Sequence record: NC_054920.1
From: Escherichia phage vB_EcoM_G9062
Strand: one strand, 5' to 3'
DNA length: 64,000 nucleotides
In this document: positions 3,399 through 63,055 of the stretch, one piece after another
Layout: every line of letters begins with the position of its first letter
Position numbering within the stretch: the stretch's first letter is position 1
The notes under the pieces: generated by a model
The model's database searches: none
Told to the model about the DNA's origin: nothing
Seen by the model: only the letters and a program-made list of their open reading frames with translations
Program-made: the position numbers and the translations under genes

Positions 3399-3468
3399 GT
3401 TATCGAGTTGGTGCCATTATATACATCATTTTCTGATTGTGTTTTGTGTGCTTTCAAAATGAAGAAAG

Positions 3469-3482
3469 GGGCCGAAGCCCCT
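3469..3482 (-). terminator. GC hairpin downstream of hoc
   Basis: ggggc-cgaa-gcccc stem; T-rich on minus strand side. Confidence 0.4.
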
Positions 3483-3487
3483 TATGA

Positions 3488-4906
3488 TTATGGATAGGTA
3501 TAGATGATACCAGTTTCTAAAGCAGTTTTATGAATGATGTATCCATTACGCGATTCTTGAACATCAACTTCTGGATAGTCTTTCATCATCTTCTGAAGAG
3601 TGTAACGATGTAGGTAATATTTACTATCTGGGTCGTCAGTTTTCCAATCTTTACCTTCTTCGGTCATTTTTTGGATTTCATCCATAACCCACCAACCGCA
3701 CCAGATATAAGCTGAAGTACGATGTGGAAGAGGATGAACATAAGGTAGTTCACCTTCTGGTTCTGGAGCAACTTTATCAGTTACCTGAACTTGACCTTCT
3801 GCTGTAATAGTTTTGCTATCGTAATCAGTTGCAGTAACGACAGCAGTAACTTCAATAGTTTGACTTCCAACAGATGAGGTATCGACAGTATATACGTTAG
3901 TTGACCCTTCTACAGGAGAAGAATCTTTCTTCCATGAGTAAGTAATTTGTGCTTCTTCTGGAGCACCCGTAACATTAGCCGTAAATGTAGCCGAAGCATC
4001 TTGCTGAACATTAATAGAAGGAGGAGTCAATGTAACCTGTGGATTCATTGTCTTCTTATTAACTGTCAATGATACTTCATTAGAAGTAACTTCCTTTTCA
4101 TTGTAATTTTCAGCAGTTACTTGGGCTACGCATTTAATTCTTTTTACTCCACTTGTAGTTGGAGTATAGCTAAATGTAGAGTTAGTTTCTCCACCAACTT
4201 GTGAATCATCTACATACCACTGATACGTAGCAGACGCTCCATCAGGTTGAGAAGCTAAGGCAGCAGTAAATTGAACTGGGGTTCCGATTACTCCCGCTGG
4301 AGGACTATCAGGAGTTACTGCCAAAGTAGTTGTCTGCGTCTTTTTATTAACAGTTAGTGACACTTCATTGGAAGTAACTTCCTTTGTATCATAATCTGTC
4401 GCGGTTACTTGAGCTACGCACTTAATTGTTTTAACTCCGCTTGCGTCAGGAGTGTAATTGAATGTAGTGCTAGTTGCTTCGCCCACAGGAGAACCGTCAA
4501 CGTACCATTGATACGTAGCGTTTGCACCTGATGGCTGTGAAGCTAAGGCAGCGGTAAATTCAATTGGAGTTCCAATCACTCCAGCATCAGGGCTACCAGG
4601 AGTTACTGCCAAAGTAGTTGTTTGTGTCTTATTTTGAACTGTGATAGTTGTACTAATTTCAGCTGTTTCAGGTTCAGATTCTGCAACTTGATTGGTTGCA
4701 ACTACTTTAATAGTCTTTTGACCGGCAGGTCCTTTTAGTACATAACTAAAAGTTGCTGACGTTTCTTCCTGTGGAGCGTCGTCTACAGTCCAAGCATATG
4801 TAATAGTTCCGCCTCCAGTTTCACCACTGGGTGTAGCAGTAAACTGCTTAGTTTCATCAATAACCCCTGTCGGTGTTTTAGGAGTTATATCAACTGTAAA
4901 AGTCAT
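3488..4906 (-). CDS. hoc: Hoc outer capsid decoration protein, 472 aa with an extra Ig-like domain
   Basis: N- and C-terminal regions match T4 Hoc (MTFTVDITPKTPTGVIDETKQF...; ...YVHPLPHR..IWCGWWVMDEIQKMTEEGKDWK); tandem ~96-aa repeat. Confidence 0.9.
   Translation of the reverse strand: MTFTVDITPKTPTGVIDETKQFTATPSGETGGGTITYAWTVDDAPQEETSATFSYVLKGPAGQKTIKVVATNQVAESEPETAEISTTITVQNKTQTTTLAVTPGSPDAGVIGTPIEFTAALASQPSGANATYQWYVDGSPVGEATSTTFNYTPDASGVKTIKCVAQVTATDYDTKEVTSNEVSLTVNKKTQTTTLAVTPDSPPAGVIGTPVQFTAALASQPDGASATYQWYVDDSQVGGETNSTFSYTPTTSGVKRIKCVAQVTAENYNEKEVTSNEVSLTVNKKTMNPQVTLTPPSINVQQDASATFTANVTGAPEEAQITYSWKKDSSPVEGSTNVYTVDTSSVGSQTIEVTAVVTATDYDSKTITAEGQVQVTDKVAPEPEGELPYVHPLPHRTSAYIWCGWWVMDEIQKMTEEGKDWKTDDPDSKYYLHRYTLQKMMKDYPEVDVQESRNGYIIHKTALETGIIYTYP
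4048..4624 (-). repeat. Tandem in-frame duplication (two ~288-bp units) inside hoc encoding near-identical Ig-like domains
   Basis: Protein repeats TQTTTLAVTPGSPDAGVIGTPIEFTAALASQP... and TQTTTLAVTPDSPPAGVIGTPVQFTAALASQP... ending SNEVSLTVNKK. Confidence 0.8.
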
Positions 4907-5646: not shown

Positions 5647-7158
5647 ATGACTGACATTAAAGTACATTTTTATGATTTTAGTCACGTGAGAATTGATTGC
5701 GAAGAAAGTACATTTCATGAACTCCGTGATTTCTTTAGCTTTGAAGCTGATGGGTATCGTTTTAATCCGAAGTACAAATATGGCCACTGGGATGGACGAA
5801 TTCGTCTTTTAGATTATAATCGCCTTCTTCCATTCGGTTTAGTCGGGCAAATTAAAAAGTTCTGCGATAACTTTGGCTATAAAGCCTGGATTGACCCACA
5901 GATTAACGAAAAAGAAGAATTATCAAGAAAAGATTTTGATGAATGGCTTTCTAAATTAGAAATCTATTCAGGAAATAAAAGAATTGAACCGCATTGGTAT
6001 CAAAAAGATGCAGTGTTCGAAGGATTAGTTAATCGTCGTAGAATTCTTAATCTTCCAACATCCGCTGGTAAATCGTTAATTCAAGCTTTGCTTGCGCGAT
6101 ATTATTTGGAAAATTATGAAGGTAAAATTCTTATCATTGTTCCAACAACTGCTCTAACAACTCAGATGGCTGATGACTTCGTTGACTATCGTTTATTCAG
6201 TCATGCAATGATAAAGAAAATTGGTGGCGGAGCATCAAAAGATGATAAATATAAAAATGATGCACCAGTCGTTGTTGGTACATGGCAAACTGTAGTAAAA
6301 CAACCGAAAGAATGGTTCTCACAGTTTGGAATGATGATGAATGATGAATGCCATCTTGCTACAGGAAAAAGTATTTCATCTATCATATCAGGTTTAAATA
6401 ACTGCATGTTCAAATTTGGTCTATCTGGTTCATTACGTGATGGCAAAGCCAATATCATGCAGTATGTTGGAATGTTTGGTGAAATATTTAAGCCAGTAAC
6501 GACTTCTAAGTTAATGGAAGATGGACAAGTAACTGAGCTAAAAATTAATAGTATTTTTCTTCGCTATCCCGATGAGTTCACTACTAAATTAAAGGGAAAA
6601 ACTTATCAAGAAGAAATAAAAATTATTACGGGGCTTAGTAAAAGAAATAAATGGATCGCTAAATTGGCTATTAAGCTTGCACAAAAAGATGAAAACGCTT
6701 TTGTCATGTTTAAACATGTATCACATGGTAAAGCTATTTTCGATTTAATTAAAAATGAATACGATAAAGTTTATTACGTATCAGGGGAAGTTGATACCGA
6801 AACCCGCAATATAATGAAAACCTTAGCTGAAAATGGTAAAGGAATAATTATAGTAGCTAGTTATGGTGTATTTTCTACTGGTATTTCAGTTAAAAATCTG
6901 CATCACGTTGTTTTAGCGCACGGTGTTAAATCAAAAATCATTGTATTACAAACAATCGGTCGTGTATTACGTAAGCATGGTTCTAAAACAATCGCAACAG
7001 TCTGGGACCTCATAGATGACTGTGGTGTCAAGCCAAAATCTGCTAATACTAAAAAGAAATATGTTCACTTGAACTATCTTTTAAAACACGGCATTGATCG
7101 TATTCAGCGCTACGCAGATGAAAAATTTAATTACGTAATGAAAACAGTTAATTTATAA
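5647..7158 (+). CDS. uvsW: UvsW DNA/RNA helicase (SF2)
   Basis: 503 aa; Walker A LPTSAGKS, DECH box (MMMNDECHLA); length as T4 UvsW. Confidence 0.93.
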   Translation: MTDIKVHFYDFSHVRIDCEESTFHELRDFFSFEADGYRFNPKYKYGHWDGRIRLLDYNRLLPFGLVGQIKKFCDNFGYKAWIDPQINEKEELSRKDFDEWLSKLEIYSGNKRIEPHWYQKDAVFEGLVNRRRILNLPTSAGKSLIQALLARYYLENYEGKILIIVPTTALTTQMADDFVDYRLFSHAMIKKIGGGASKDDKYKNDAPVVVGTWQTVVKQPKEWFSQFGMMMNDECHLATGKSISSIISGLNNCMFKFGLSGSLRDGKANIMQYVGMFGEIFKPVTTSKLMEDGQVTELKINSIFLRYPDEFTTKLKGKTYQEEIKIITGLSKRNKWIAKLAIKLAQKDENAFVMFKHVSHGKAIFDLIKNEYDKVYYVSGEVDTETRNIMKTLAENGKGIIIVASYGVFSTGISVKNLHHVVLAHGVKSKIIVLQTIGRVLRKHGSKTIATVWDLIDDCGVKPKSANTKKKYVHLNYLLKHGIDRIQRYADEKFNYVMKTVNL

Positions 7159-7183
7159 GGGCTTCGGCCCTTTGGAGAAAAAG

Positions 7184-7414
7184 ATGTTACTAGAATTTAA
7201 ACAATTTCTTTATGAAGCTTCTATTGATGAATTTATGGGTAAAATTGCCTCTTGTCAAACATTAGAAGGTTTAGAAGAACTTGAAGCTTATTATAAGAAA
7301 AGAGTTAAAGAAACTGAATTAAAAGATACTGATGACATCTCAGTCAGAGATGCTTTGGCAGGAAAAAGAGCTGAATTAGAAGATTCAGACGATGAAGTAG
7401 AAGAAAGCTTTTAA
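7184..7414 (+). CDS. uvsW.1: UvsW.1 small acidic protein
   Basis: 76 aa from ATG preceded by GGAG; track ORF begins at an upstream TTG. Confidence 0.75.
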   Translation: MLLEFKQFLYEASIDEFMGKIASCQTLEGLEELEAYYKKRVKETELKDTDDISVRDALAGKRAELEDSDDEVEESF

Positions 7415-7420
7415 ATTAAA

Positions 7421-7447
7421 AAAGGCCCAACCAAAAAGGAAGGGCCA
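7421..7447 (-). terminator. Terminator for the minus-strand uvsY transcription unit
   Basis: ggccc...gggcc stem followed on the minus strand by a T6 tract. Confidence 0.5.
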
Positions 7448-7469
7448 AAACTATAGACTAAAGGTCACA

Positions 7470-15685: not shown

Positions 15686-15689
15686 CAAT

Positions 15690-15707
15690 GGGGACCGAAA
15701 GGTCCCC
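15690..15707 (+). terminator. Terminator after gene 54
   Basis: ggggacc-gaaa-ggtcccc then atattttattt. Confidence 0.55.
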
Positions 15708-15712
15708 ATATT

Positions 15713-16003
15713 TTATTTACGGAATGAAATAAAAGCAGCAACTGAAGCAACAGAGGTTTCTTCAATATAAACCTCAATTTTTACCGGAGCTTCTGACTCA
15801 AATTTACCTGTTACTACACCTTGGAAAATACTTTCAGTCTGTTCTGGCTTTGAAAAATTTTCAGAAGGAAAAATTCCGAACTTTTTATCTGTTCCAAAAA
15901 TTTTGATAAATTCATCATAAACTGCTTCATTAAAAGCGTTATTCCTGCTGATAACGCCTTCAACTACAAGTTCTTGACCTAAAAAGCGTAAAGAAGATTT
16001 CAT
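15713..16003 (-). CDS. alt.-3: Alt.-3-like small protein
   Basis: 96-aa ORF just downstream of the early promoter copy A. Confidence 0.7.
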   Translation of the reverse strand: MKSSLRFLGQELVVEGVISRNNAFNEAVYDEFIKIFGTDKKFGIFPSENFSKPEQTESIFQGVVTGKFESEAPVKIEVYIEETSVASVAAFISFRK

Positions 16004-16010
16004 TTTGTGT

Positions 16011-16064
16011 TCCTCATGTTATGTCAGTAAGACTACTATAACACAACACGAGGGACTTGTAAAC
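16011..16064 (-). promoter_or_regulatory. Early promoter plus leader, copy A of a 54-bp exact repeat
   Basis: Minus strand: GTTTAC, 17 nt, gTTATAGT, leader with SD gaggaac; identical to 31874-31927. Confidence 0.6.
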
Positions 16065-18121
16065 TACATTTTGAACTTTTTAGACATTCCGTTGATGTTA
16101 ACCAAAGAAGCTAAGATTTGAGAAACTTCGCTTTCCTCTTCTTTTGATTCTTCTACAAGGAATTGATTAAATCCAGCCATTGGACGAACTTCACCAGTTT
16201 CCATTAGATGGTCGCCATCATATACTGATTCTTCTAATTGTTCAGAAGGAGGAACGATTGTACCTTCGATTAGATACTTGTTATAAGCAGTTTCTTTCAT
16301 AAAGTAAGTACTTACTTTATTAATCTTCAGTAAAATTCCACGTGGTAGAATAACTTCAGCTTCTGACGGAAATCCTGATAAATGACCCGGAACGATAACT
16401 TTGATTCGCTCAGCTCCTTTAATTACCATACCCACGCTAGTTTCAGCATCTTCATTAGCATATGTAGAATGACTACCCATATGCATCAAATCTTCTGCAT
16501 CAACGGAACCTTCTCCTTCACCAGAAAATACTGCGCCGGAATCATCTAGAGCCATATAGTTTTTACCATGCTCACCGAAGATATTTGGTTTAAGCGATGT
16601 GGATACGAAGTTCTTGAAATAGAACATTTTATTTTCAATGTTATGACGCAAAGTTTTAAAGGTAACTTCTTGTCCACGGTAAAGTGTAGTTCCTGGAGGA
16701 AGAACTGAACCTTTAGCGAATGCAGAATCAAGCGTCTCAATATGTTTAATAGCTCGTTCCATATATTCTTCACGGGTAGAATCTGGTTTACCCAAAAGGA
16801 ACGAGTTCATTTCAACATATGAATCTGCACAATAATCTTCAATTACATCAGATTCAGCTTGAGTTAATCCTTTTGGAGTTACTTCAGTGCTTGCGTATTC
16901 ATATGCCTGAGCAGCAGATTCATTAATCAATTTATAAATGCCATTCATGACAAATTGAATAATAGCTGTCTTTTCATCTGGCGTAGCTTTAGAACCTTTA
17001 ACCAAATCATTGATAATTTTCTTAATAACATCAAAGCTATTAGAAATATTAATATCAGCAAGATCGCTTAAAATTTTATCAGTCTTATAATCAAAGAATT
17101 CTTTATTCTTTAAATATTCTTGAGAACCTTGATATGTTATATCGCTCTGTAACTTGATAGATGGATCACGTAAACGTGCATGGGCTAATGCAATATGATT
17201 TCGGAAGCTTTCGAGTTCATAATCACTAGATTTAAAACGAGAAGCGCTTCTCATACCGCCTATAGCTCCTTTGCTGAAGTTTGAACCAATTTGAATAACG
17301 CCAGAGTTCATTGGTCCTTCTGCTTTATACACCGGAACTTTAGATTCAAACTCTTGATATTTCTTAGCAGCGAAGCTATCACCCTGAAGTGAAGCATCAA
17401 CAGTAGAATATTGAGCTTGTGCTGCTAATCGACGACTAATTTTAGTTTTTTGAATAACAGCTTGATCCGTGCGCTTATCATTTTCTAAAGCAATAGAAGC
17501 AGCAACAGCGACAGCTTTAGGAACAGCATTACCTGTTTTAACATCTACATAAACATCACCGACCTTCGATTCAACTTTTGTGAATAACTCAGTTGAAATA
17601 GGAGGTACACCTGGAATGTCTTCTAAATTGGCATTTTTACGGTAAACCATAATATATGCATACTTTTTATCATAGTCCCAGATTTCCTTTAAAAGAACAT
17701 ATCGACCTGCTCCTTTAGTACGTACTAAACGGTCAGCAATAACTTGCATTTGACGAGCAGCGCCATTTGTTTTACTCTTTAGTACGCGGAATAAGCATGC
17801 ATCAATTTTATACTGTTTCATTGTTTGAAGAGCAGTATCAAAAACAGCGTTAATGACGCCAATTGGATTTCCACCCAAGTTTCTAAGTTTAACCAGTGAT
17901 AATTTCTCGTTGACACCTATCATTACGATATGCATCATTTTATCGCCCGGCTTAACGTTTTTATTTGTATCACCTCCAGAGGTGTATGTACAAAATCTAA
18001 ATCCAGGAAGCACGCTTTCTTCGCCGGCTTGAATAGCAAAAATTTGAGGTATTTTATGCTTAGGATTTAAGTTAACAACCGGCGCCGAAGCGCCGTCAAA
18101 TAATTCTGTAATAAGTTCCAT
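16064..18121 (-). CDS. Alt-like ADP-ribosyltransferase paralog (685 aa)
   Basis: Shares N-terminal and C-terminal regions with alt incl. TLYRGQ, YFKNFVSTSL, EAEVILPRG; central region divergent. Confidence 0.85.
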   Translation of the reverse strand: MELITELFDGASAPVVNLNPKHKIPQIFAIQAGEESVLPGFRFCTYTSGGDTNKNVKPGDKMMHIVMIGVNEKLSLVKLRNLGGNPIGVINAVFDTALQTMKQYKIDACLFRVLKSKTNGAARQMQVIADRLVRTKGAGRYVLLKEIWDYDKKYAYIMVYRKNANLEDIPGVPPISTELFTKVESKVGDVYVDVKTGNAVPKAVAVAASIALENDKRTDQAVIQKTKISRRLAAQAQYSTVDASLQGDSFAAKKYQEFESKVPVYKAEGPMNSGVIQIGSNFSKGAIGGMRSASRFKSSDYELESFRNHIALAHARLRDPSIKLQSDITYQGSQEYLKNKEFFDYKTDKILSDLADINISNSFDVIKKIINDLVKGSKATPDEKTAIIQFVMNGIYKLINESAAQAYEYASTEVTPKGLTQAESDVIEDYCADSYVEMNSFLLGKPDSTREEYMERAIKHIETLDSAFAKGSVLPPGTTLYRGQEVTFKTLRHNIENKMFYFKNFVSTSLKPNIFGEHGKNYMALDDSGAVFSGEGEGSVDAEDLMHMGSHSTYANEDAETSVGMVIKGAERIKVIVPGHLSGFPSEAEVILPRGILLKINKVSTYFMKETAYNKYLIEGTIVPPSEQLEESVYDGDHLMETGEVRPMAGFNQFLVEESKEEESEVSQILASLVNINGMSKKFKM

Positions 18122-18124
18122 GAT

Positions 18125-20173
18125 TTATCCTTGAACGAACTTGTAAGGCATGTTTGCAATATCTATGCAAGACGCAATAATTCCAAGAGATGATTCTACT
18201 TTCTGTTTAACATTTGATGAAACAAATGATGCAAAGTCAACTCTATCTTCTATATCACCTGTCATTGTAACCAATTCACCAGTTTCCATTAAATGGTCTC
18301 CGTCATAGATTACCGATTCGGTGAGTTCTTCTGTGGTCATAACTTCAGCTTGAATAAGCTTGTTGTTAGTTTTAACTGTTCCATCATTGTAAGATGCATC
18401 GGTTATTTTATTAACTTTGACCATTAATCCACGTGGCAAAATGACTTCCATTTCATTTGAAGGTGCTAAACTTCCACCGGGTAAAACAACATTGACCTTA
18501 TCAGCCCCAGTAATAACCCATCCAATTCCAACTAAATTATCGCTAGAATTTACTAGTCCTTCATCAGTTTTATCAATAGAAACACTTAGACGCTTTTCGT
18601 CTGGTAAAACACCTACAGATGAATCAGTCATCCAAGTACCAAAAATATTTGGATATAATGATGTTGACACAAAGTTTCTAAAATAAAAAACTCGATTTTT
18701 TACCATTGCTTCATATATTGAAGGTAACATTCGTTGTGAACGATACAAAGTAATACCTTTTGGTAATCGTTCACCATTTTTAAAGGCTGAATCTAAATTA
18801 TCAATAGCTTTTTCTATGTCAGATGCTGTCAAAATACTTGTACGCTCATCTGGATTATATAATCCCAAAAGAGCATTATTTATATCTACATATCCTGAAC
18901 CTACGTATTCACGAATTCCGCGTTTTTGCGCCGGTGTGTATTTAGATGAATCTTTATTTTCGACTATAGGATGTAATGACCATCCAGCTGTAAGAGCATA
19001 TCCACGTAATTCTCTTCGAATAATCTTTGTTTTTATTGCATTCCAAGAATTTTGTACTAACTCATTTGCAGCATCTTGGTTTAAATGCGAATGTTTGTTA
19101 ATATTTCTTTCAAACCAAGCACCTTTATATTTTTCTAAAGTATCATCGACGATAGAAGCAATAGTTTCTAAAGTTTTTATTGAAGTAATAGATTCTTTTC
19201 GTAATCTTTCTAAAGCTTTATTTTTTATTTCTGTATTAACATCAGATTCTTTATCTTCAGGAATTATAGAAGCTTCTCTGAATGCCATTCCAGCTGTAAC
19301 ACTATTAAGAGCATTCTCTAATGCAAATCCTGAAGTAGAAATAACAGTTAATTCGTTAGCATCGGAAATTAAAGGCGCATCAGCGGGTTTATTTAATTCT
19401 GCTGCTGAAGCCTCAAATTTTTGAAACATCGGTGTTTCAAATCTAGAAGATTCCAATGATTGACTTTGCGCAATTGCTCTACGGGAAATTTTAACTTTAA
19501 CGATTACAGCTTGGTCAGAACGTTTATCATTTTCTTGTGCAATAGATGCTGCAATTGCCTCATTTTTAGTTACTTGAGCTCCAGTATCTTTATTGATATA
19601 AACATCACCGACCTTCGATTCAACTTTAGTAAAGAGCTCGGTACTAATTTCTGGAACTCCTGGAATGTCTTCTAGTGATACATTTTTGCGATGTATAAGA
19701 ATATATGCATACTTTTTATCATAATCCCAGAGTTCCTTAAGAAGGACGTATCTGCCGCCTGAACGACTACGGATAAGTCTATCAGCAATAACTTGAATTT
19801 GTCGAGCTTGACCAGCGGTTTTAGACTTAAGAATACGGAGCATACAAGCATCAATTTTATATTGACGCATTGTTTGCATTGCAACAGTAAAAACTGAATT
19901 GATATAATTAATTGGGCTTGGCCCAAGACCTTTCAATTTAGCAATTGAACCTTTAGCGGTTAATGTAAAAGGAACAATATGCATCATTTTATCGCCCATT
20001 TTTAAATCGCGATTAGTATCACCTCCAGATGTATAGGTACATAAACGAAAGCCTGGCTGTTCAATTGCATCATCAACGTGAACTGAAAAAATTTGCGGTA
20101 TTTTCTTCTTTGGATTTAAGTTTGTAATCGGAAGAGTAGTATCTTCGTCAAATAATTCTGTAATGAGTTCCAT
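18125..20173 (-). CDS. alt: Alt ADP-ribosyltransferase, capsid-packaged
   Basis: 682 aa from second Met; TLYRSQ, YFRNFVSTSL, EMEVILPRG motifs (R-S-E type). Confidence 0.85.
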   Translation of the reverse strand: MELITELFDEDTTLPITNLNPKKKIPQIFSVHVDDAIEQPGFRLCTYTSGGDTNRDLKMGDKMMHIVPFTLTAKGSIAKLKGLGPSPINYINSVFTVAMQTMRQYKIDACMLRILKSKTAGQARQIQVIADRLIRSRSGGRYVLLKELWDYDKKYAYILIHRKNVSLEDIPGVPEISTELFTKVESKVGDVYINKDTGAQVTKNEAIAASIAQENDKRSDQAVIVKVKISRRAIAQSQSLESSRFETPMFQKFEASAAELNKPADAPLISDANELTVISTSGFALENALNSVTAGMAFREASIIPEDKESDVNTEIKNKALERLRKESITSIKTLETIASIVDDTLEKYKGAWFERNINKHSHLNQDAANELVQNSWNAIKTKIIRRELRGYALTAGWSLHPIVENKDSSKYTPAQKRGIREYVGSGYVDINNALLGLYNPDERTSILTASDIEKAIDNLDSAFKNGERLPKGITLYRSQRMLPSIYEAMVKNRVFYFRNFVSTSLYPNIFGTWMTDSSVGVLPDEKRLSVSIDKTDEGLVNSSDNLVGIGWVITGADKVNVVLPGGSLAPSNEMEVILPRGLMVKVNKITDASYNDGTVKTNNKLIQAEVMTTEELTESVIYDGDHLMETGELVTMTGDIEDRVDFASFVSSNVKQKVESSLGIIASCIDIANMPYKFVQG

Positions 20174-20210
20174 CATATCCTCTCTAGTGTTTATTCTATT
20201 TATAAAATTA

Positions 20211-24138: not shown

Positions 24139-24179
24139 AGTATTTTCCTCAGTAAGGGGCCGAAGCCCCTCATTTTATT

Positions 24180-24545
24180 TTAAATATCAAATTCGTTAAG
24201 AACTACATCAAAGATTGCTTCAAGATGCTCAGGTTTAGCTCTGTTACTCAGAATATGACGAATCCAAGTTTTAACCAGAAGCTTGCGATTAACGCCATTC
24301 CAGCAAGGATGAGTCCCTAAATCGCGTTGACGAAAATCATCATCCAAAGCGATTTTAAAAGAAGAACCTTCCATTGTGATTGAAACCGTGATGCCATTTT
24401 CAAATCGCATATAAACGTAGTTAGGAGTCATATATTGTTCAATTTCGCATACTGATCCATTTTGATGTTTCCAAAGGCAAATAGTATCAATAGAACATGC
24501 AATACCATTAGAAAAATATTTACGTTCAAAGTTGATGTAGTTCAT
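24180..24545 (-). CDS. Hypothetical protein
   Basis: 121-aa ORF with SD ggaga; early promoter upstream. Confidence 0.6.
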   Translation of the reverse strand: MNYINFERKYFSNGIACSIDTICLWKHQNGSVCEIEQYMTPNYVYMRFENGITVSITMEGSSFKIALDDDFRQRDLGTHPCWNGVNRKLLVKTWIRHILSNRAKPEHLEAIFDVVLNEFDI

Positions 24546-24577
24546 TTTTATTCTCCGAGATGTTTAATTGCGGTACA

Positions 24578-24611
24578 GGTATATAATATCATATCCTGTA
24601 CCAAAGTAAAC
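24578..24611 (-). promoter_or_regulatory. T4-type early promoter
   Basis: Minus strand GTTTAC, ~17 nt, TGaTATTATAT. Confidence 0.5.
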
Positions 24612-28043: not shown

Positions 28044-28564
28044 GTTGATCCTAGCTCCTTACTTTCAACATTTTTAACTAATTTGACAGAAACTAATTCA
28101 GCATCTTGGGTAATCATTACCGGACCTTCTTCATGCTCTTCAAGATATTCTAGAGCTTTCTTTTTAGCTTCTTCCTTCGTATCAGTTTGAGCATAGATAT
28201 AGAACATACAACCAGTAATACCTACTACTTTCCACTTAATTTCTTTATCAGTTTTAATTTCAAATTTACTTACAGAATCATCTTTTTGAACTTCTTCGAA
28301 AAAAGAATATTCTAACATATAAGCAATTGAAAATAACGGGCTAACTTTATAGGATTCACCCATTACATCAACAGCTTTATACCAACAATCATCAATTTCA
28401 CGTTTAATGCTAATAACATTTTTCGCAGGATCTATTTTTACTTTAAATGAATTTTCCCCAATAAACTGGGCAATTCGTTTATTGGCCCCGCAAGTTTCAT
28501 TAAAAATATCTTTATATCCAGCTTTAAAGCGATAAACCTTATCTTCTTCAAACCATTCGCTCAT
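28037..28564 (-). CDS. Hypothetical protein
   Basis: 175-aa ORF with SD gagga; early promoter upstream. Confidence 0.6.
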   Translation of the reverse strand: MSEWFEEDKVYRFKAGYKDIFNETCGANKRIAQFIGENSFKVKIDPAKNVISIKREIDDCWYKAVDVMGESYKVSPLFSIAYMLEYSFFEEVQKDDSVSKFEIKTDKEIKWKVVGITGCMFYIYAQTDTKEEAKKKALEYLEEHEEGPVMITQDAELVSVKLVKNVESKELGSTC

Positions 28565-28590
28565 TTCAATTTCCTCATTTGTTTTGGTAG

Positions 28591-28624
28591 AGCTATAATA
28601 TCACAACTCTACCGTAAAGTAAAC
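28591..28624 (-). promoter_or_regulatory. T4-type early promoter
   Basis: Minus strand GTTTAC, 18 nt, TGaTATTATAG. Confidence 0.5.
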
Positions 28625-31022: not shown

Positions 31023-31372
31023 TTAGAAAGGTCCTGGATGTCTTCTGCGAACTTGTTGAAGGAGTTGTTGATTTGTTTTTCAACCAATCCTGGCTTATGA
31101 GCCACCACATCCGCCTTCTTTGCGTCTTTGCGCAGTTTTTCATTTTCACGCTCAATAGCAGCAATTGCCTCACGATTTTTATTATTCATCGCATCAATAT
31201 AATTATACTGAATTCGCAAATTATTTAATGCTAAGGCGTTTTCATTGGCTGTTTTTGTAATTTCAGTAACTGATGTTTCTAATCTTTCTACCTTATTTTT
31301 TAAAATAATAGATGTTCCGCCAAATGCTATTACAAGTAATAGCAATCCAGCTGTAAAATTACTTACATGCAT
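31019..31372 (-). CDS. pseT.3: Inner-membrane spanin (i-spanin)
   Basis: N-terminal TM helix LLLLVIAFGGTSIIL then coiled-coil rich region. Confidence 0.7.
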   Translation of the reverse strand: MHVSNFTAGLLLLVIAFGGTSIILKNKVERLETSVTEITKTANENALALNNLRIQYNYIDAMNNKNREAIAAIERENEKLRKDAKKADVVAHKPGLVEKQINNSFNKFAEDIQDLSK

Positions 31373-31869
31373 AAAGTTTTAATAACCTCTATAATATCGT
31401 CTTGAGAAAGACCGTTAATTAAAATATGATGTTCAGCTGGAGATTTAGAAATTTTAAAGCATGCCTCAACATCTTCTGCCATATCCGATGCACTACGATT
31501 TGGATTACTAATTCCAAGACGATGCTTTCCAGTCAAAGGATTAACGATGATATAGCATTTACAACTATTGATATGAACATTAGGTTGAGTCTGATTAATA
31601 AATACATCACAATCATATTTCGCAAGCTGATTTTCTAAAAAGACTTTCATCTCTTCAACCGCATCAGGAAGCATATCACGGGCTTGCTCAAGACGACGAT
31701 TTCGATATTCTTTAATGGTCGTTTTCCGCTTGACTTGCTTAGCTAAATCTTTCTTAAGATCGGTGATATATCCAACTCGACGGTTTCCTTTAAATACAGA
31801 AATCCCATCTGTAGTATCACCGTATGCTTCAACGACCATTTCAGTAGTAATAAGCTGCAAATCCATCAT
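31363..31869 (-). CDS. alc: Alc, inhibitor of host transcription on cytosine-containing DNA
   Basis: 168 aa (T4 Alc ~167); position between rnlA and the spanins. Confidence 0.85.
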   Translation of the reverse strand: MMDLQLITTEMVVEAYGDTTDGISVFKGNRRVGYITDLKKDLAKQVKRKTTIKEYRNRRLEQARDMLPDAVEEMKVFLENQLAKYDCDVFINQTQPNVHINSCKCYIIVNPLTGKHRLGISNPNRSASDMAEDVEACFKISKSPAEHHILINGLSQDDIIEVIKTLCM

Positions 31870-31873
31870 AAAG

Positions 31874-31927
31874 TCCTCATGTTATGTCAGTAAGACTACT
31901 ATAACACAACACGAGGGACTTGTAAAC
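31874..31927 (-). promoter_or_regulatory. Early promoter plus leader, copy B of the 54-bp exact repeat
   Basis: Identical to 16011-16064; drives alc. Confidence 0.6.
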
Positions 31928-31930
31928 AGC

Positions 31931-33518
<1,588 letters not shown>

Positions 33519-40982: not shown

Positions 40983-41052
40983 CTTAGCAAGCTTTAATCA
41001 AAAGATATAAACAGACCAACATAACTGCTGCCATAATATAAGGTGCGAACAT
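40983..41052 (-). CDS. Possible 22-aa hydrophobic peptide
   Basis: MFAPYIMAAVMLVCLYLLIKAC with SD ggag; early promoter upstream. Confidence 0.3.
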
Positions 41053-41111
41053 TTTCTTTTCTCCATTAGTTTTGATAGGGTAATAGTATCACACTACTAC
41101 CCTTTTGTAAA

Positions 41112-41477
41112 CTACTTTTTGAAAGTTTTTCGCAAAAGTTCAATGATTTCATCTACATTGTTTTCGTCAACAATGCAGTGAATTTTTGTTACGCCAGAAA
41201 CTATGTCTTCGGCTCCATCTTCTTCAGAAGTCGGTTCTTTATACTCGCGAAAACAATGAAATTCGTCTTCACAAACGTTAAAGTAAAAATGCTTTCCATT
41301 TGCGCATTCAATGTGTTTTATTACTCTAAATCCATCAACAAAGAAAGCTTCTTTAACTTCAAACCATCCACCATTTTCTTGAATAATTTTAACTATCGAT
41401 GAATTAGAACGTGGGCGATAATTAATAAATGTATCAATAAGTCTTGGAACAAGCTCATACTTTTTGCCAATATACAT
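41112..41477 (-). CDS. Hypothetical protein
   Basis: 121-aa ORF with SD gagga. Confidence 0.55.
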   Translation of the reverse strand: MYIGKKYELVPRLIDTFINYRPRSNSSIVKIIQENGGWFEVKEAFFVDGFRVIKHIECANGKHFYFNVCEDEFHCFREYKEPTSEEDGAEDIVSGVTKIHCIVDENNVDEIIELLRKTFKK

Positions 41478-41782: not shown

Positions 41783-41816
41783 TTGCCGATAGTTGTATAG
41801 TACCATGGAAGGACAA
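41783..41816 (-). promoter_or_regulatory. T4-type early promoter
   Basis: Minus strand GTTTAC, 18 nt, gGTACTATAC. Confidence 0.5.
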
Positions 41817-41857
41817 GGATGTAAACAGTTTTGTGAAAAAATTTTTGAAATAAAAAA

Positions 41858-41876
41858 GGGGACCTCTAGGGTCCCC
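41858..41876 (-). terminator. Terminator downstream of gene 32
   Basis: Imperfect GC stem ggggacc...ggtcccc followed by T6 on the minus strand. Confidence 0.6.
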
Positions 41877-41898
41877 AATTAATTAGTAATATAATCTG

Positions 41899-42807
41899 TT
41901 AAAGGTCATTCAAAAGGTCATCTAGGTCCGTGTCATCAGCACTAGATGAACTGCCAGAGCTTGAGCTCATAAAATCATCTTCAGTTTTTGTTTTGAAGTC
42001 ATCAACATTGAATGCATCCAAATCATCAGCAACTTTATCAGCTTTCTTAGCGGCAGTTGCAGCGGCACCACCCATTGCAGCAGTTCCCATAACTTGACTG
42101 AACTTAGTGCTCAGTTCTTCAAATGATTTGAATTTATCTTTAGAAGTCATTTCAGAAAGGTCAACCATTTGTTCGAACAGTTCTTTCTGGAAAGATTCAT
42201 CGTCAATGTTTGGAATCGCAGATTGATTCAGGAATTTAGATTCGTCGTAGTTACTAAAACCAGAAACTTGTTTAACTTTCAGTACAAAGTTAGCACCTTC
42301 CCACGGGCAAGTTACATCAACCGGAGTTTCACCCATTTCAACATCAACTGCAATCATTGCATTGATTTTATCCCAGATTTTCTTACCGAAACGATATTTA
42401 AATACTTTACCTTCGTTTTCTGGAGCAGCTGGGTCTTTTACAACAAGAATGTTAGCCCAGTAAGAAGTTTTACGTTTAACAAGACTGTACTCTTTATTGT
42501 CAGTGTTGTACAAATCATTTTTACTGATGTACTGACATACTGGACAAGAATCGTAATCACCGTAGGTAGATGAGCATGTTTCGATATACCATTTACCATT
42601 TTTCTTGAAACCGTGATTTACAAGAAGTGCGAATGGTGCTTGTTCATCATTTTTAGACGGAAGAAAACGAATTACTGCTTGGCCGTTACCCGCATTGTCG
42701 AGTTTCAGTTTCCACTCGCCTTTATCTTCAGAAGAAAAACCACCTTTATTTCCAGCCAGTTTAGCCATTTGCGCAGCGAGTTCAGCAGTAGATTTACGTT
42801 TAAACAT
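41899..42807 (-). CDS. 32: Single-stranded DNA-binding protein gp32
   Basis: 302 aa; acidic Ser-rich C-terminal tail [22 protein letters not shown]. Confidence 0.95.
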
Positions 42808-45173: not shown

Positions 45174-48100
45174 ATGGCCGAGATTAAAAGAAAGTTCAGA
45201 GCAGAAGATGGTCTGGACGCAGGTGGCGATAAAATAATCAACGTAGCTTTAGCTGACCGTACCGTAGGAACTGACGGTGTTAACGTTGATTACTTAATTC
45301 AAGAAAACACAGTTCAGCAATATGATCCAACTCGTGGATATTTAAAAGATTTTGTAATCATTTATAATAATCGTTTTTGGGCAGCAACGGATAATATTCC
45401 AAAACCTGCTGGAAATTTTAATAGAATTCGTTGGAAAGCATTACGTACTGATGCCGTATATACAACCGTATCATCTGGACCATATCAATTAAAATCCGGA
45501 GAAGCAATTTCAGTAGATACATCAGTTGGCAATGACATTGAGTTTACTTTACCACCTTCTCCGCTTGATGGAGAAACCGTAATAATTCAAGATATCGGTG
45601 GAAAACCTGGCATAAATCAGGTTAAAATAAATTCTTCAAATCAGAGTATTGTCAATTTTAGAGGTGAACAGGTACGTTCAGTTTTAATGACTCATCCAAA
45701 GTCACAGATGATATTCATTTTTAATAATCGTTTGTGGCAAATGTATGTTGCTGATTATAGCAGAGAAGCTGCGATTGTTACTCCATCGACTGCGTATCAA
45801 GCACAATCTAATGATTTTATCGTACGTAGATTTACTTCTGCTGCACCAATTAATGTTAAACTTCCGAGATTTGCTAATCATGGCGATATTATTAATTTCG
45901 TTGATTTAGATAAACTGAATCCACTTTATCATACAATTGTTACTACATACGATGAAACGACTTCAGTACAAGAAGTTGGAACTCATTCCATTGAAGGCCG
46001 TACATCGATTGACGGTTTCTTGATGTTTGACGATAATGAGAAATTGTGGAGATTGTTTGACGGGGATAGTAAAGCACGTTTACGCATTATAACAACTAAT
46101 TCAAATATTCGTCCAAATGAAGAAGTCATGGTATTTGGCGCGAATAATGGAACAACCCAAACAATTGAACTTCAGCTTCCGACTGATATTTCTGTTGGTG
46201 ATACTGTTAAAATTTCCATGAATTACATGAGAAAAGGACAAACAGTTAAAATCAAAGCTGCTGGTGAAGATAAAATTGCTTCTTCAGTTCAATTGCTGCA
46301 ATTCCCAAAACGTTCAGAATATCCGCCTGAAGCTGAATGGGTAACAGTTCAAGAATTAGTTTTTAATGGTGAAACTAATTATGTACCAGTTTTGCAACTT
46401 GCTTATATAGAAGATTCTGATGGAAAATACTGGGTTGTACAGCAAAACGTTCCAACAGTTGAAAGAGTCGATTCTTTAAATAATTCTACTAGAGCAAGAT
46501 TAGGCGTAATTGCTTTAGCTACACAAGCTCAAGCAAATGCTGATTTAGAAAATTCTCCACAAAAAGAATTAGCAATTACTCCAGAAACGTTAGCTAATCG
46601 TACTGCTACTGAAACTCGCAGAGGTATTGCAAGAATAGCAACTACTGCTCAAGTAAATCAGAACACCACATTCTCTTTTGCAGATGACCTTATCATCACT
46701 CCTAAAAAGCTGAATGAAAGAACTGCTACAGAAACTCGTAGAGGTGTTGCTGAAATTGCTACGCAGCAAGAAACTAATACAGGTACTGATGATACTACAA
46801 TCATCACTCCTAAAAAGCTTCAAGCTCGTCAAGGTTCTGAATCATTATCTGGTATTGTAACTTTTGTATCTACCGCAGGAGCTACTCCAGCTTCTAGTCG
46901 TGAATTAAATGGTACGAATGTTTATAATAAAAACACTAATAATTTAGTTGTTTCACCTAAAGCTTTGGATCAGTATAAAGCTACTCCAACGCAACAAGGC
47001 GCAGTAATTTTAGCAGTTGAAAGTGAAGTAATTGCTGGACAAAGCCAAGAAGGATGGGCAAATGCGGTTGTAACGCCAGAAACGTTACATAAAAAGACAT
47101 CAACTGATGGAAGAATTGGTTTAATTGAAATTGCTACGCAAAGTGAAGTTAATACAGGAACTGACTATACTCGTGCAGTCACTCCTAAAACTTTAAATGA
47201 CCGTAGAGCAACTGAAAGTTTAAGTGGTATAGCTGAAATTGCTACGCAAGTTGAATTCGACGCAGGCGTCGACGATACTCGTATCTCTACACCATTAAAA
47301 ATTAAAACCAGATTTAATAGTACTGATCGTACTTCTGTTGTTGCTCTATCTGGATTAGTTGAATCAGGAACTCTCTGGGACCATTATACCCTTAATATTC
47401 TTGAAGCAAATGAGACACAGCGTGGTACACTTCGTGTAGCTACACAAGTTGAAGCTGCTGCAGGAACATTAGATAATGTTTTAATAACTCCTAAAAAGCT
47501 TTTAGGTACTAAATCTACCGAATCGCAAGAAGGTGTTATTAAAGTTGCAACTCAGTCTGAAACTGTGACTGGAACGTCAGCAAATACTGCTGTATCTCCA
47601 AAAAATTTAAAATGGATTGTGCAGAGTGAACCAACTTGGGCAGCAACTACTCTGATAAGAGGGTTTGTTAAAACTTCTTCTGGTTCATTAACGTTTGTTG
47701 GTAATGATACGGTAGGTTCAACACAGCCATTAGAATCATATGAGAAAAATGGTTATGCAGTATCACCATATGAATTAAATCGCGTATTAGCAAATTATTT
47801 GCCGTTAAAAGCAAAAGCTGCTGACGCAAATTTATTAGATGGTCTAGATTCATCTCAGTTCATTCGTAGGGATATTGCCCAGACAGTTAATGGTTCACTA
47901 ACCTTAACCAAACAAACGAACCTGAGTGCCCCTCTTGTATCATCTAGTACTGCTACGTTTGGTGGATCAGTTTCAGCAAATAGTACACTAACTATTTCTA
48001 ATACTGGAACGGCAACTCAATTAATTTTTGAGAAAGGACCTCAAACTGGAACAAACCCGACTCAAACAATGACTGTAAAAGTGTGGGGAAATCAATTTAG

Positions 48101-58103: not shown

Positions 58104-58136
58104 TTTAATCTCCGTTTCAGTTCATTTATTTGATAG

Positions 58137-58170
58137 GTCTATAGTATCATGTTTAAAGCAGAAGTAAACA
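58137..58170 (-). promoter_or_regulatory. T4-type early promoter for motA
   Basis: Minus strand GTTTAC, ~17 nt, TGaTACTATAG, then SD ggaga. Confidence 0.55.
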
Positions 58171-58435: not shown

Positions 58436-58480
58436 TTTTTGTATCTCCGGGTTGTTTGTTTCAGTTCATTTATTTGATAG

Positions 58481-58514
58481 TTGTATAGTACCACAGTATG
58501 CTTTGGTTGTAAAC
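58481..58514 (-). promoter_or_regulatory. T4-type early promoter
   Basis: Minus strand GTTTAC, ~17 nt, gGTACTATAC. Confidence 0.5.
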
Positions 58515-58545
58515 CGTTTTGTGAAAAAATTTTTGAAATAAAAAA

Positions 58546-58567
58546 GGGAGAGCCGAGGCTCTCCCTA
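58546..58567 (-). terminator. Rho-independent terminator
   Basis: gggagagcc-tcg-gctctccc followed by T6 on the minus strand. Confidence 0.6.
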
Positions 58568-58570
58568 AAA

Positions 58571-58720
58571 TTACTGCATGACTGTGATAACTGTCATGAT
58601 AACACGTTGAATTCCGAACGCAAGAAGACCTCCTGCTACGGCAGGAACAACACCTAAACCCGCCAGTAAAATGCCACCAGATACTAATGCAGCGCTTGTG
58701 ATACCAATGAATGGACTCAT
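58571..58720 (-). CDS. Small glycine-zipper membrane peptide
   Basis: 49-aa ORF MSPFIGITSAALVSGGILLAGLGVVPAVAGGLLAFG...; ATGA overlap with gene 52 stop. Confidence 0.45.
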   Translation of the reverse strand: MSPFIGITSAALVSGGILLAGLGVVPAVAGGLLAFGIQRVIMTVITVMQ

Positions 58721-61597: not shown

Positions 61598-61620
61598 TTT
61601 CTGTTCCTCCGTAGTTGATA

Positions 61621-61654
61621 GGTAATAGTACCACGGAAGAACAGTCTTGTAAAC
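61621..61654 (-). promoter_or_regulatory. T4-type early promoter
   Basis: Minus strand GTTTAC, ~17 nt, gGTACTATTAC. Confidence 0.5.
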
Positions 61655-62132: not shown

Positions 62133-62168
62133 GTTGTATAGTACCACGGTCCTTGTGGTATGTAAACC
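62133..62168 (-). promoter_or_regulatory. T4-type early promoter
   Basis: Minus strand GTTTAC, ~17 nt, gGTACTATAC. Confidence 0.5.
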
Positions 62169-62741: not shown

Positions 62742-62808
62742 TTAAACTTTCCTTTTATGTCTGAATCACTGGTATTCATATAATAAATCATAATTTCTCT
62801 TAAAACAA

Positions 62809-62824
62809 AAGGGCCGAAGCCCTT
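62809..62824 (-). terminator. GC hairpin (copy 1 of a repeated hairpin)
   Basis: aagggc-cgaa-gccctt with T-rich flanks. Confidence 0.45.
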
Positions 62825-62827
62825 ATT

Positions 62828-63022: not shown

Positions 63023-63039
63023 AATTTTCCTCAGTTAAG

Positions 63040-63055
63040 GGCCGAAGCCCTTATT
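63040..63055 (-). terminator. GC hairpin (copy 2), overlapping the rIIB 3' end
   Basis: Same aagggc-cgaa-gccctt stem as at 62809. Confidence 0.35.

Follow-up and report, generated by a model that had tools for sequence, protein, structure and literature searches.

Two copies of a 54-bp cassette at gene junctions

The window analysed here, a 64,000-nucleotide (nt) stretch of Escherichia phage vB_EcoM_G9062 (NC_054920.1), comes from a T4-like phage of the genus Tequatrovirus, the 18 kb around the repeat described below being ~97% identical to many T4-like coliphages. It contains a 54-bp promoter and leader cassette, TCCTCATGTTATGTCAGTAAGACTACTATAACACAACACGAGGGACTTGTAAAC, which is found as two exact plus-strand matches, at 16011–16064 and 31874–31927, with 0 mismatches between them. 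The copies lie in direct orientation, 15,863 bp apart, and are read on the minus strand toward alt.-3 (copy 1) and alc (copy 2). A first-pass annotation of the window had described this duplication, about 15.8 kb apart and direct, and had placed the copies ahead of these two genes; exact and mismatch searches bear out the former and synteny the latter. The identity extends over all 54 bp, beyond the promoter consensus, and breaks off sharply at both ends. No third copy with ≤3 mismatches was found in the window, and the chance expectation for a match is 0 (100 dinucleotide-preserving shuffles).

The minus-strand genes were identified by synteny with T4 and other annotated relatives. Each copy exactly fills the gap between the stop codon of the upstream gene and the start codon of the downstream one:

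16011–16064, minus strand: cassette copy 1, with the −35 hexamer at one end and the Shine–Dalgarno (SD) sequence at the other, in the gap from the stop codon of the second alt paralog to the alt.-3 ATG
31874–31927, minus strand: cassette copy 2, in the gap from the rnlA (gene 63) stop codon to the alc ATG
15713–16003, minus strand: alt.-3 homolog, 96 aa, downstream of copy 1
31363–31869, minus strand: alc, inhibitor of host transcription, downstream of copy 2 (the start in the T4 annotation is the second ATG, at 31866)
16064–18121, minus strand: second alt paralog, full-length, 685 aa, upstream of copy 1; its transcripts would enter the cassette
31931–33091, minus strand: open reading frame (ORF) of rnlA (gene 63), upstream of copy 2
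15688–15709, no strand assigned: bidirectional terminator-like hairpin after alt.-3, facing the convergent gene 54
20197–20204, minus strand: late-promoter-like TATAAATA, just upstream of alt

The start of the cassette coincides with the upstream stop codon or lies ≤3 nt from it; in copy 1, GTTTAC overlaps the alt-paralog stop TAG (16064–16066) by one base, its first G being the final base of the stop. Annotated rnlA homologs are 1125 nt long, and by that length the gene in the window would end at ~33055. The block between the copies includes cd, pseT and two genes that are essential in T4, gene 30 (DNA ligase) and gene 31.

The same pair of cassettes is present in T4, with 1 mismatch between the copies. 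The 54-mer was found at 995 places in 498 phage records, about two per genome, and every listed record bearing it has two places. This count matches that of the records with an Alc protein at least 95% identical (~495), which indicates that the pair is genus-wide and not peculiar to isolate vB_EcoM_G9062. All retrieved genomes contain two copies, 13.2–15.9 kb apart and in the same order.

In T4, alc and alt.-3 are both assigned early RNA and early protein, while alt is late and rnlA has early RNA and late protein (PMC9697503). The first-pass annotation had read the identical cassettes as a sign of co-regulation of two host-takeover genes. Both genes are indeed early in T4, which carries little weight given the 215 T4 genes classed as early in that study (PMC9697503), and the description as host-takeover genes is overstated, as alt.-3 has been called uncharacterised and a T4 strain lacking nearly all of it could still be propagated (PMC11618068).

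An early promoter in each copy

The elements of the cassette, all on the minus strand and given for copy 1 with copy 2 in brackets, are:

16059–16064 (31922–31927): −35 element GTTTAC, from the sequence and the promoter scan
16035–16040 (31898–31903): −10 hexamer TATAGT preceded by TGt (extended −10), from the scan and the fold
16028 (31891): predicted transcription start, an A 7 nt past the −10, placed by sigma-70 promoter geometry
16011–16015 (31874–31878): SD sequence GAGG(A), from the sequence
16040–16053 (31903–31916): 5′ arm of the hairpin, CCUCGUGUUGUGUU, in the promoter spacer, with the anti-SD CCUC
16012–16025 (31875–31888): 3′ arm, GACAUAACAUGAGG, containing the SD

The minus-strand sequence of the cassette is GTTTAC AAGTCCCTCGTGTTGTG(T) TATAGT AGTCTTACTGACATAACAT GAGGA. 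A consensus scan finds TTTACA, 17 nt, TATAGT and an upstream TG at both copies, with 10 of 12 consensus matches. The earlier reading as GTTTAC, 17 nt and TATAGT was right about the elements, including GAGGA, but the 17-nt spacing is valid only from TTTACA, the spacer being 18 nt if counted from GTTTAC. Both copies contain the −35, 17-nt spacer, TGn and −10 of a T4-type early (sigma-70) promoter, and drive alt.-3 and alc, early genes in T4, from predicted starts. The interpretation of each copy as an early promoter with a leader and SD is thus supported by the promoter scan and by the downstream genes, for which the early timing is assigned per gene, not per promoter. A literature search returned nothing relevant on the alc/alt.-3 promoter pair, the alc leader structure or T4 transcription start site maps, and the T4 record AF158101 has no promoter features annotated in this region. 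The sequences upstream of the −35, at the UP-element position, differ between the copies.

The window contains 13 GTTTAC-type early promoters on the minus strand, including the two copies. Identity over 54 nt is 45 ± 10% for the remaining promoter pairs and reaches 72% at most, so the 100% identity of the cassette pair is far beyond what the promoter consensus accounts for. That the other early promoters share only the consensus, as first noted, is roughly correct, but some pairs have extended similarity: regions 58114–58149 and 58458–58493 (36 nt at 92%) and regions 41788–41909 and 58476–58597 (122 nt at 73%). These may represent further duplication or exchange of promoter cassettes.

Relatives vary in the −10 hexamer at both sites (TATAGT, TACAGT or the consensus TATAAT); the strength of the two promoters probably varies from phage to phage. 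A small upstream ORF (MRNTK/MRTL), with its ATG inside CATGAGGA and its TGA overlapping the start codon, was considered and rejected; it has no SD of its own, and the conserved SD–ATG spacing yields such an ORF trivially.

A predicted hairpin between promoter spacer and Shine–Dalgarno sequence

The first-pass annotation had left unnoticed an internal inverted repeat, by which the promoter spacer can pair with the SD. The sense RNA of the 54-mer folds as ...........((((((((((((((..((((....))))))))))))))))))., an 18-bp hairpin with a minimum free energy (MFE) of −22 kcal/mol and a z-score of −5.4, a fold that none of 200 shuffles matches. The −10 is found mostly in the apical internal loop and the short top helix, its first base closing the main stem, and the predicted start is also in the apical part, downstream of the whole 5′ arm. 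In the context of alc, copy 2 has a longer stem (−24.4 kcal/mol). As three of the pairs are G·U, the antisense RNA folds to no more than −12.8 kcal/mol (z −2.3), and this strand asymmetry favours a role of the sense-strand RNA over a DNA cruciform.

Both copies were taken from 17 Tequatrovirus genomes, mainly from an annotated phage collection; scans of IMG/VR viral contigs with the Alc and Alt.-3 proteins gave only 5–6 loci each. The hairpin is kept in all 20 natural Tequatrovirus variants, with energies from −15.8 to −27.2 kcal/mol. Standard pairs make up 97.4% of the pair cells. Several alleles strengthen the stem: 15A and 39A change G·U to A-U, 43C gives a G-C, and 26C and 10T each add a pair. 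One genome shows a compensatory change, C-G to U-A, that involves a base of the SD. In phage ACG-C40, the alc copy (2793–2850) has an extra G in the SD (GAGGGA) that pairs with the spare third C of CCC; it is the most stable variant (−27.2 kcal/mol), and the −10 is TACAGT in both copies of this phage.

Two known categories of RNA hairpin were considered and rejected. A scan for intrinsic (rho-independent) terminators finds none at either cassette, the only hit being 15688–15709 after alt.-3, and no U-run follows the alt.-3 copy; no relevant covariance-model match to an Rfam family was found at E ≤ 1 around either copy. In phage SA20RB (OL960581.1, 32292–32341) the alt.-3 copy is labelled as a rho-independent terminator (WebGeSTer), and the annotation gives no early promoter at the alt.-3 cassette or at alc. 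This label is probably a mis-annotation of a promoter-embedded hairpin, and the annotation of a T4-like genome should not by default treat a hairpin over an early promoter as a terminator.

Other early promoters of the window also contain hairpins. The one at 61601–61654 (minus strand), upstream of a 37-aa membrane-type ORF, has the same architecture in an unrelated sequence: its spacer CUGUUCUUCCGUGGU pairs with ACUACGGAGGAACAG, including the SD (−22.1 kcal/mol, z −5.9, 3′ arm GGAGGAA). Weaker SD-covering stems are found at early promoters 25041 and 41826. At 24540–24611, 28560–28624 and 41048–41112 (minus strand), inverted repeats enclose the −10 and end before the SD (z −4.3, −3.7 and −3.1, respectively); they have no U-tract and are therefore not typical terminators.

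The hairpin in other genera

At the rnlA/alc junction, an anti-SD segment that pairs with the SD was also found in Gelderlandvirus, Dhakavirus, Jiaodavirus, Roskildevirus, Kanagawavirus, Gualtarvirus and Biquartavirus. In these seven genera it lies in the promoter spacer or the −10, at or upstream of the predicted start, and the hairpins have z-scores from −1.7 to −3.9. The arm sequences differ by genus (AUCUCCGUUU/AAACGGAGAU, UCUCCUCAU/AUGAGGAGA, AUCCUCAUCAG/CUGAUGAGGAU and CCCAUUUUGUUGUGU/ACAC-AACAAAAUGGG) and the stems are in different registers. One Lazarusvirus has only a ~12-nt gap before alc.

Dhakavirus, Marfavirus and Kanagawavirus also have the TAG/GTTTAC overlap at the alt/alt.-3 junction. 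The spacer there is of a generic CCAC..GTGG type in the first two and a different sequence in Kanagawavirus, and pairing with the SD is weak in all three (z about −1.5). The presence of the hairpin at alc across genera, together with this weak pairing at the alt.-3 junctions, suggests that the design is old at alc, and we tentatively regard it as ancestral at that junction.

A predicted translational gate

The cassette may double as an RNA switch, the spacer CCUCGUGUUGUGUU being complementary to the leader and SD, GACAUAACAUGAGG. RNA coming from upstream would carry both arms, fold (about −22 kcal/mol) and hide the SD; such read-through RNA would be late alt mRNA at copy 1 and longer rnlA-containing transcripts at copy 2. 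RNA begun at the embedded promoter, ~7 nt after the −10, would lack the 5′ arm and be translatable, and the synthesis of Alc and Alt.-3 would then depend almost entirely on their own immediate-early promoter. Partition-function folds of the predicted read-through RNA give GAGG an unpaired probability of 0.00–0.03 at both sites, and RNA from the predicted +1 has a whole-transcript MFE of only about −4.5 to −4.8 kcal/mol. The predicted start is at cassette index 36 and the 5′ arm occupies indices 11–24. The scan finds no terminator-like site between the upstream genes and the cassettes at either site. Late read-through RNA that enters copy 1 probably originates at the late-promoter-like TATAAATA upstream of alt; at the equivalent site a late promoter is annotated in SA20RB. 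From the folding and the comparison between genera, we infer an SD-masking RNA switch.

This arrangement is comparable to that of T4 genes e, soc, 49 and I-TevI, in which a late promoter lies inside an SD-sequestering hairpin and the early read-through RNA is not translated (PMC3014915); alc is not mentioned in that review of T4 initiation-region hairpins. As in those genes, the SD would be in a helix only in transcripts from upstream promoters, giving a time-gated translation that is predicted here, and the proximal start, also predicted here, would lie inside or after the 5′ arm and make its own RNA translatable. Conservation is likewise comparable, the hairpin being kept in the 20 Tequatrovirus variants and having analogs in seven genera. 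The known gates contain a late promoter, whereas that of the cassette is a sigma-70 early promoter whose −35/−10 spacer is itself the anti-SD arm, and the RNA to be silenced is not the early read-through but a late (alt) or longer prereplicative (rnlA) one. With an early embedded promoter the logic of the gate would be mirrored, only the promoter-proximal immediate-early RNA being expected to be translated. The cassette is probably a new member of the T4 promoter-dependent translational gates, with its RNA behaviour as predicted by folding. If so, the classic mechanism of e, soc, 49 and I-TevI would be extended from late to early promoters, and the hairpin would explain the confinement of Alc and Alt.-3 to the first minutes despite later-transcribed genes upstream. 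For phage engineering, the expression of a gene placed behind the cassette would depend on which promoter made the transcript.

The hairpin could instead serve the upstream alt and rnlA messages, as a 3′-end structure, an attenuator or a barrier to exonucleases, its pairing with the SD being incidental. Such a role would fit the position of the cassette directly after the upstream stop codon, the action of PeSL stem-loops as terminators (PMC2839356), the terminator label given by the SA20RB annotators, and the −10 hairpins of early promoters 24611, 28624 and 41112, which leave the SD free. We consider it rather unlikely, since no U-tract follows the stem of the alt.-3 copy (ACACAAAAUG) and the terminator scan is empty at both cassettes. 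Moreover, eight genera have the SD in the 3′ arm and the anti-SD in the 5′ arm, neither of which a 3′-end structure needs, and the sole compensatory change observed involves a base of the SD.

Probable gene conversion between the two copies

The exact identity seen in the window does not extend to all relatives, in which the copies of one genome differ by 0–5 nt (17 genomes); they are identical in the window, in PP01, in UFV10 and in one IMG/VR contig. The 54-mer is polymorphic at 13–16 sites among relatives, while little or no variation is seen in the −35 hexamer, most of the −10 and the SD. In the 17 genomes no position shows a fixed difference between the alc copies and the alt.-3 copies. 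The alc site has 10 derived alleles and the alt.-3 site 14, of which 7 are common to both (same allele, same position), against 1.3–1.7 predicted by independent mutation (P ≤ 0.0004). The two-site haplotypes 28A+31A and 31A+33T are present at both loci, PP01 and UFV10 have the same variant haplotype in both copies, and ACG-C40 has 26C in both. The mean distance between the copies within a genome is 2.5 nt, and that between genomes is 2.1 and 3.2 nt at the two sites.

The absence of fixed differences and the shared alleles and haplotypes point to ectopic gene conversion, and we strongly infer from this polymorphism that the copies undergo concerted evolution rather than being a frozen duplicate. 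Their near-identity would be kept by repeated non-crossover copying between the two sites, likely by the very active homologous-recombination machinery of the phage, and the exact identity in the window would be one snapshot of this ongoing conversion. A duplication of 15.8 kb is larger than the headful terminal redundancy of T4. A crossover between the copies would delete or duplicate the essential genes 30 and 31, so that the surviving products should all be of the non-crossover kind, in line with the unvarying two-copy arrangement. The first-pass annotation had proposed that the direct repeat could delete or duplicate the intervening block by recombination; exchange is supported and the event is mechanistically possible, but as it removes essential genes and two copies are kept in every genome retrieved, it is a biological dead end. 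No crossover product (insertion or deletion) between the copies was found in the genomes sampled. T4 recombination works on ~50 bp of homology (Singer 1982, cited in PMC2839356), close to the length of the cassette.

The alt.-3 junction of Tequatrovirus probably acquired its alc-type cassette by such a conversion, a tentative reading of the comparison between genera. The event may have been primed by the shared ends GTTTACAA and ACATGAGGA, which would be the limits of the converted tract. Copying in the other direction, with the Mosigvirus alc promoter as an alt.-3-type cassette, was dropped because a CCAC..GTGG-like spacer is a generic T4 early-promoter type that is also found at 62167 in the window.

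Ectopic gene conversion is known to drive the concerted evolution of dispersed repeats in duplicated bacterial genes. The cassette pair resembles such cases in its lack of fixed differences, its shared polymorphisms and haplotypes, and a within-genome divergence not above that between genomes. It differs from the usual ones in that the tract is only 54 bp, near the minimal homology of T4, and is a non-coding regulatory element. The pattern is a clean natural case of concerted evolution of a 54-bp regulatory element in a virulent phage, and bears on how regulatory modules move in T4-like genomes.

A strong promoter duplicated once and kept alike by purifying selection, with no exchange and no role of the RNA, would agree with the near-invariance of the −35, most of the −10 and the SD and with the early expression of both downstream genes. 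It is nevertheless improbable: early promoters do not need an identical spacer and leader, as the ~45% identity of the other pairs shows, and the 13–16 polymorphic sites indicate that the constraint is not strict. Nor does it account for the lack of fixed differences, the 7 alleles and two two-site haplotypes common to both sites, or a strand-asymmetric hairpin with a z-score of −5.4.

Equally improbable is a DNA recombination module of the PeSL type that would promote crossovers (mini-circles, deletions and duplications) and shuffle the alt–pseT block, in view of the essential genes 30 and 31 in the intervening 13–16 kb, the headful limit on a 15.8-kb duplication, the two copies in the same order in every genome sampled, and the G·U-dependent strand asymmetry, which speaks against a symmetric DNA cruciform. 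In its favour, ~50 bp of homology is enough in T4, PeSL recombination in RB49 and phi1 gives mini-circles with crossovers between the −10 and the SD/ATG (PMC2839356), and the alt region is variable, T4 having lost most of the second alt paralog. The likeness to PeSL modules (PMC2839356, PMC4122927) is real in several respects: both extend from stop codon to ATG, contain an early promoter, a stem-loop and an SD, are repeated, and are substrates of exchange, and the T4/PST consensus TTTACW-N17-TAYWAT given with the PeSL work fits the cassette. However, the PeSL stem-loop is upstream of the promoter and is a terminator, whereas the stem of the cassette spans the spacer, the −10 and the SD and contains no terminator-like site. 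PeSL copies are similar without being identical and flank small variable ORFs in hyperplastic regions, while those of the cassette are 13–16 kb apart around essential genes, and exchange between them is seen only as non-crossover, in contrast to the mini-circles given by PeSL recombination.

The best explanation overall, which we hold with some confidence, is an early-promoter cassette that is homogenised by conversion, carries an SD-masking hairpin, and at alt.-3 is of alc-type origin. Several observations weigh against it. The genome sample is small and partly picked for divergence, neither random nor corrected for phylogeny, and the shared polymorphisms could in part come from mutational hot spots. 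Covariation in the stem within Tequatrovirus falls short of significance (it is matched by 67 of 500 shuffles), a weak signal attributable to the low divergence, and the alleles 15T, 17A, 18A, 28A, 39T and 11A each break one stem pair. In the Mosigvirus-like outgroup HY126 both junctions have a promoter and neither has a significant hairpin (z −0.3 and +0.3), which implies that the device is dispensable in some lineages; the weak SD pairing at the alt.-3 junctions of Dhakavirus, Marfavirus and Kanagawavirus counts in the same direction. Finally, there is no late promoter near alc, and the source and timing of the read-through RNA are assumed. A broader reading, in which the cassette is a portable promoter and translational insulator that is spread and homogenised between junctions by ectopic gene conversion, is possible though doubtful. 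It would take in the similar promoter-embedded hairpins over the SD at 61654, 25041 and 41826, and those found before alc in most of the Straboviridae genera examined; if true, it would amount to a general and undescribed rule by which T4-like phages shield immediate-early proteins from read-through mRNA.

Other features of the window

The window contains two full-length alt paralogs in tandem on the minus strand, at 16064–18121 (685 aa) and 18125–20176 (683 aa). In T4 the second paralog, at 16064–18121 here, is reduced to the fragments alt.-1 and alt.-2 (T4 locus 7066–7451), and the deletion endpoint lies ~20 nt from the −35 of the alt.-3 cassette, on its upstream side; the two phages share the flank ...ctaaaaagttcaaaatgta and diverge before it.

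A family of G+C-rich hairpins of the GGGGCCGAAGCCCC type is found at 3463–3485, 24151–24173, 62805–62827 and 63033–63055, some of them followed by T-runs. They resemble intrinsic terminators and also the GGGC...GCCC motifs that Mosig tied to T4 deletion endpoints (cited in PMC2839356). A tandem direct repeat of 288 nt, in two copies with 76% identity, lies at 4050–4625. Several short imperfect direct repeats of 30–35 nt (ACTCCNNAAAANNTTA...), all in register, are located at 46578–47500 (plus strand), presumably in the long-tail-fibre region, and look like a repeated peptide motif.

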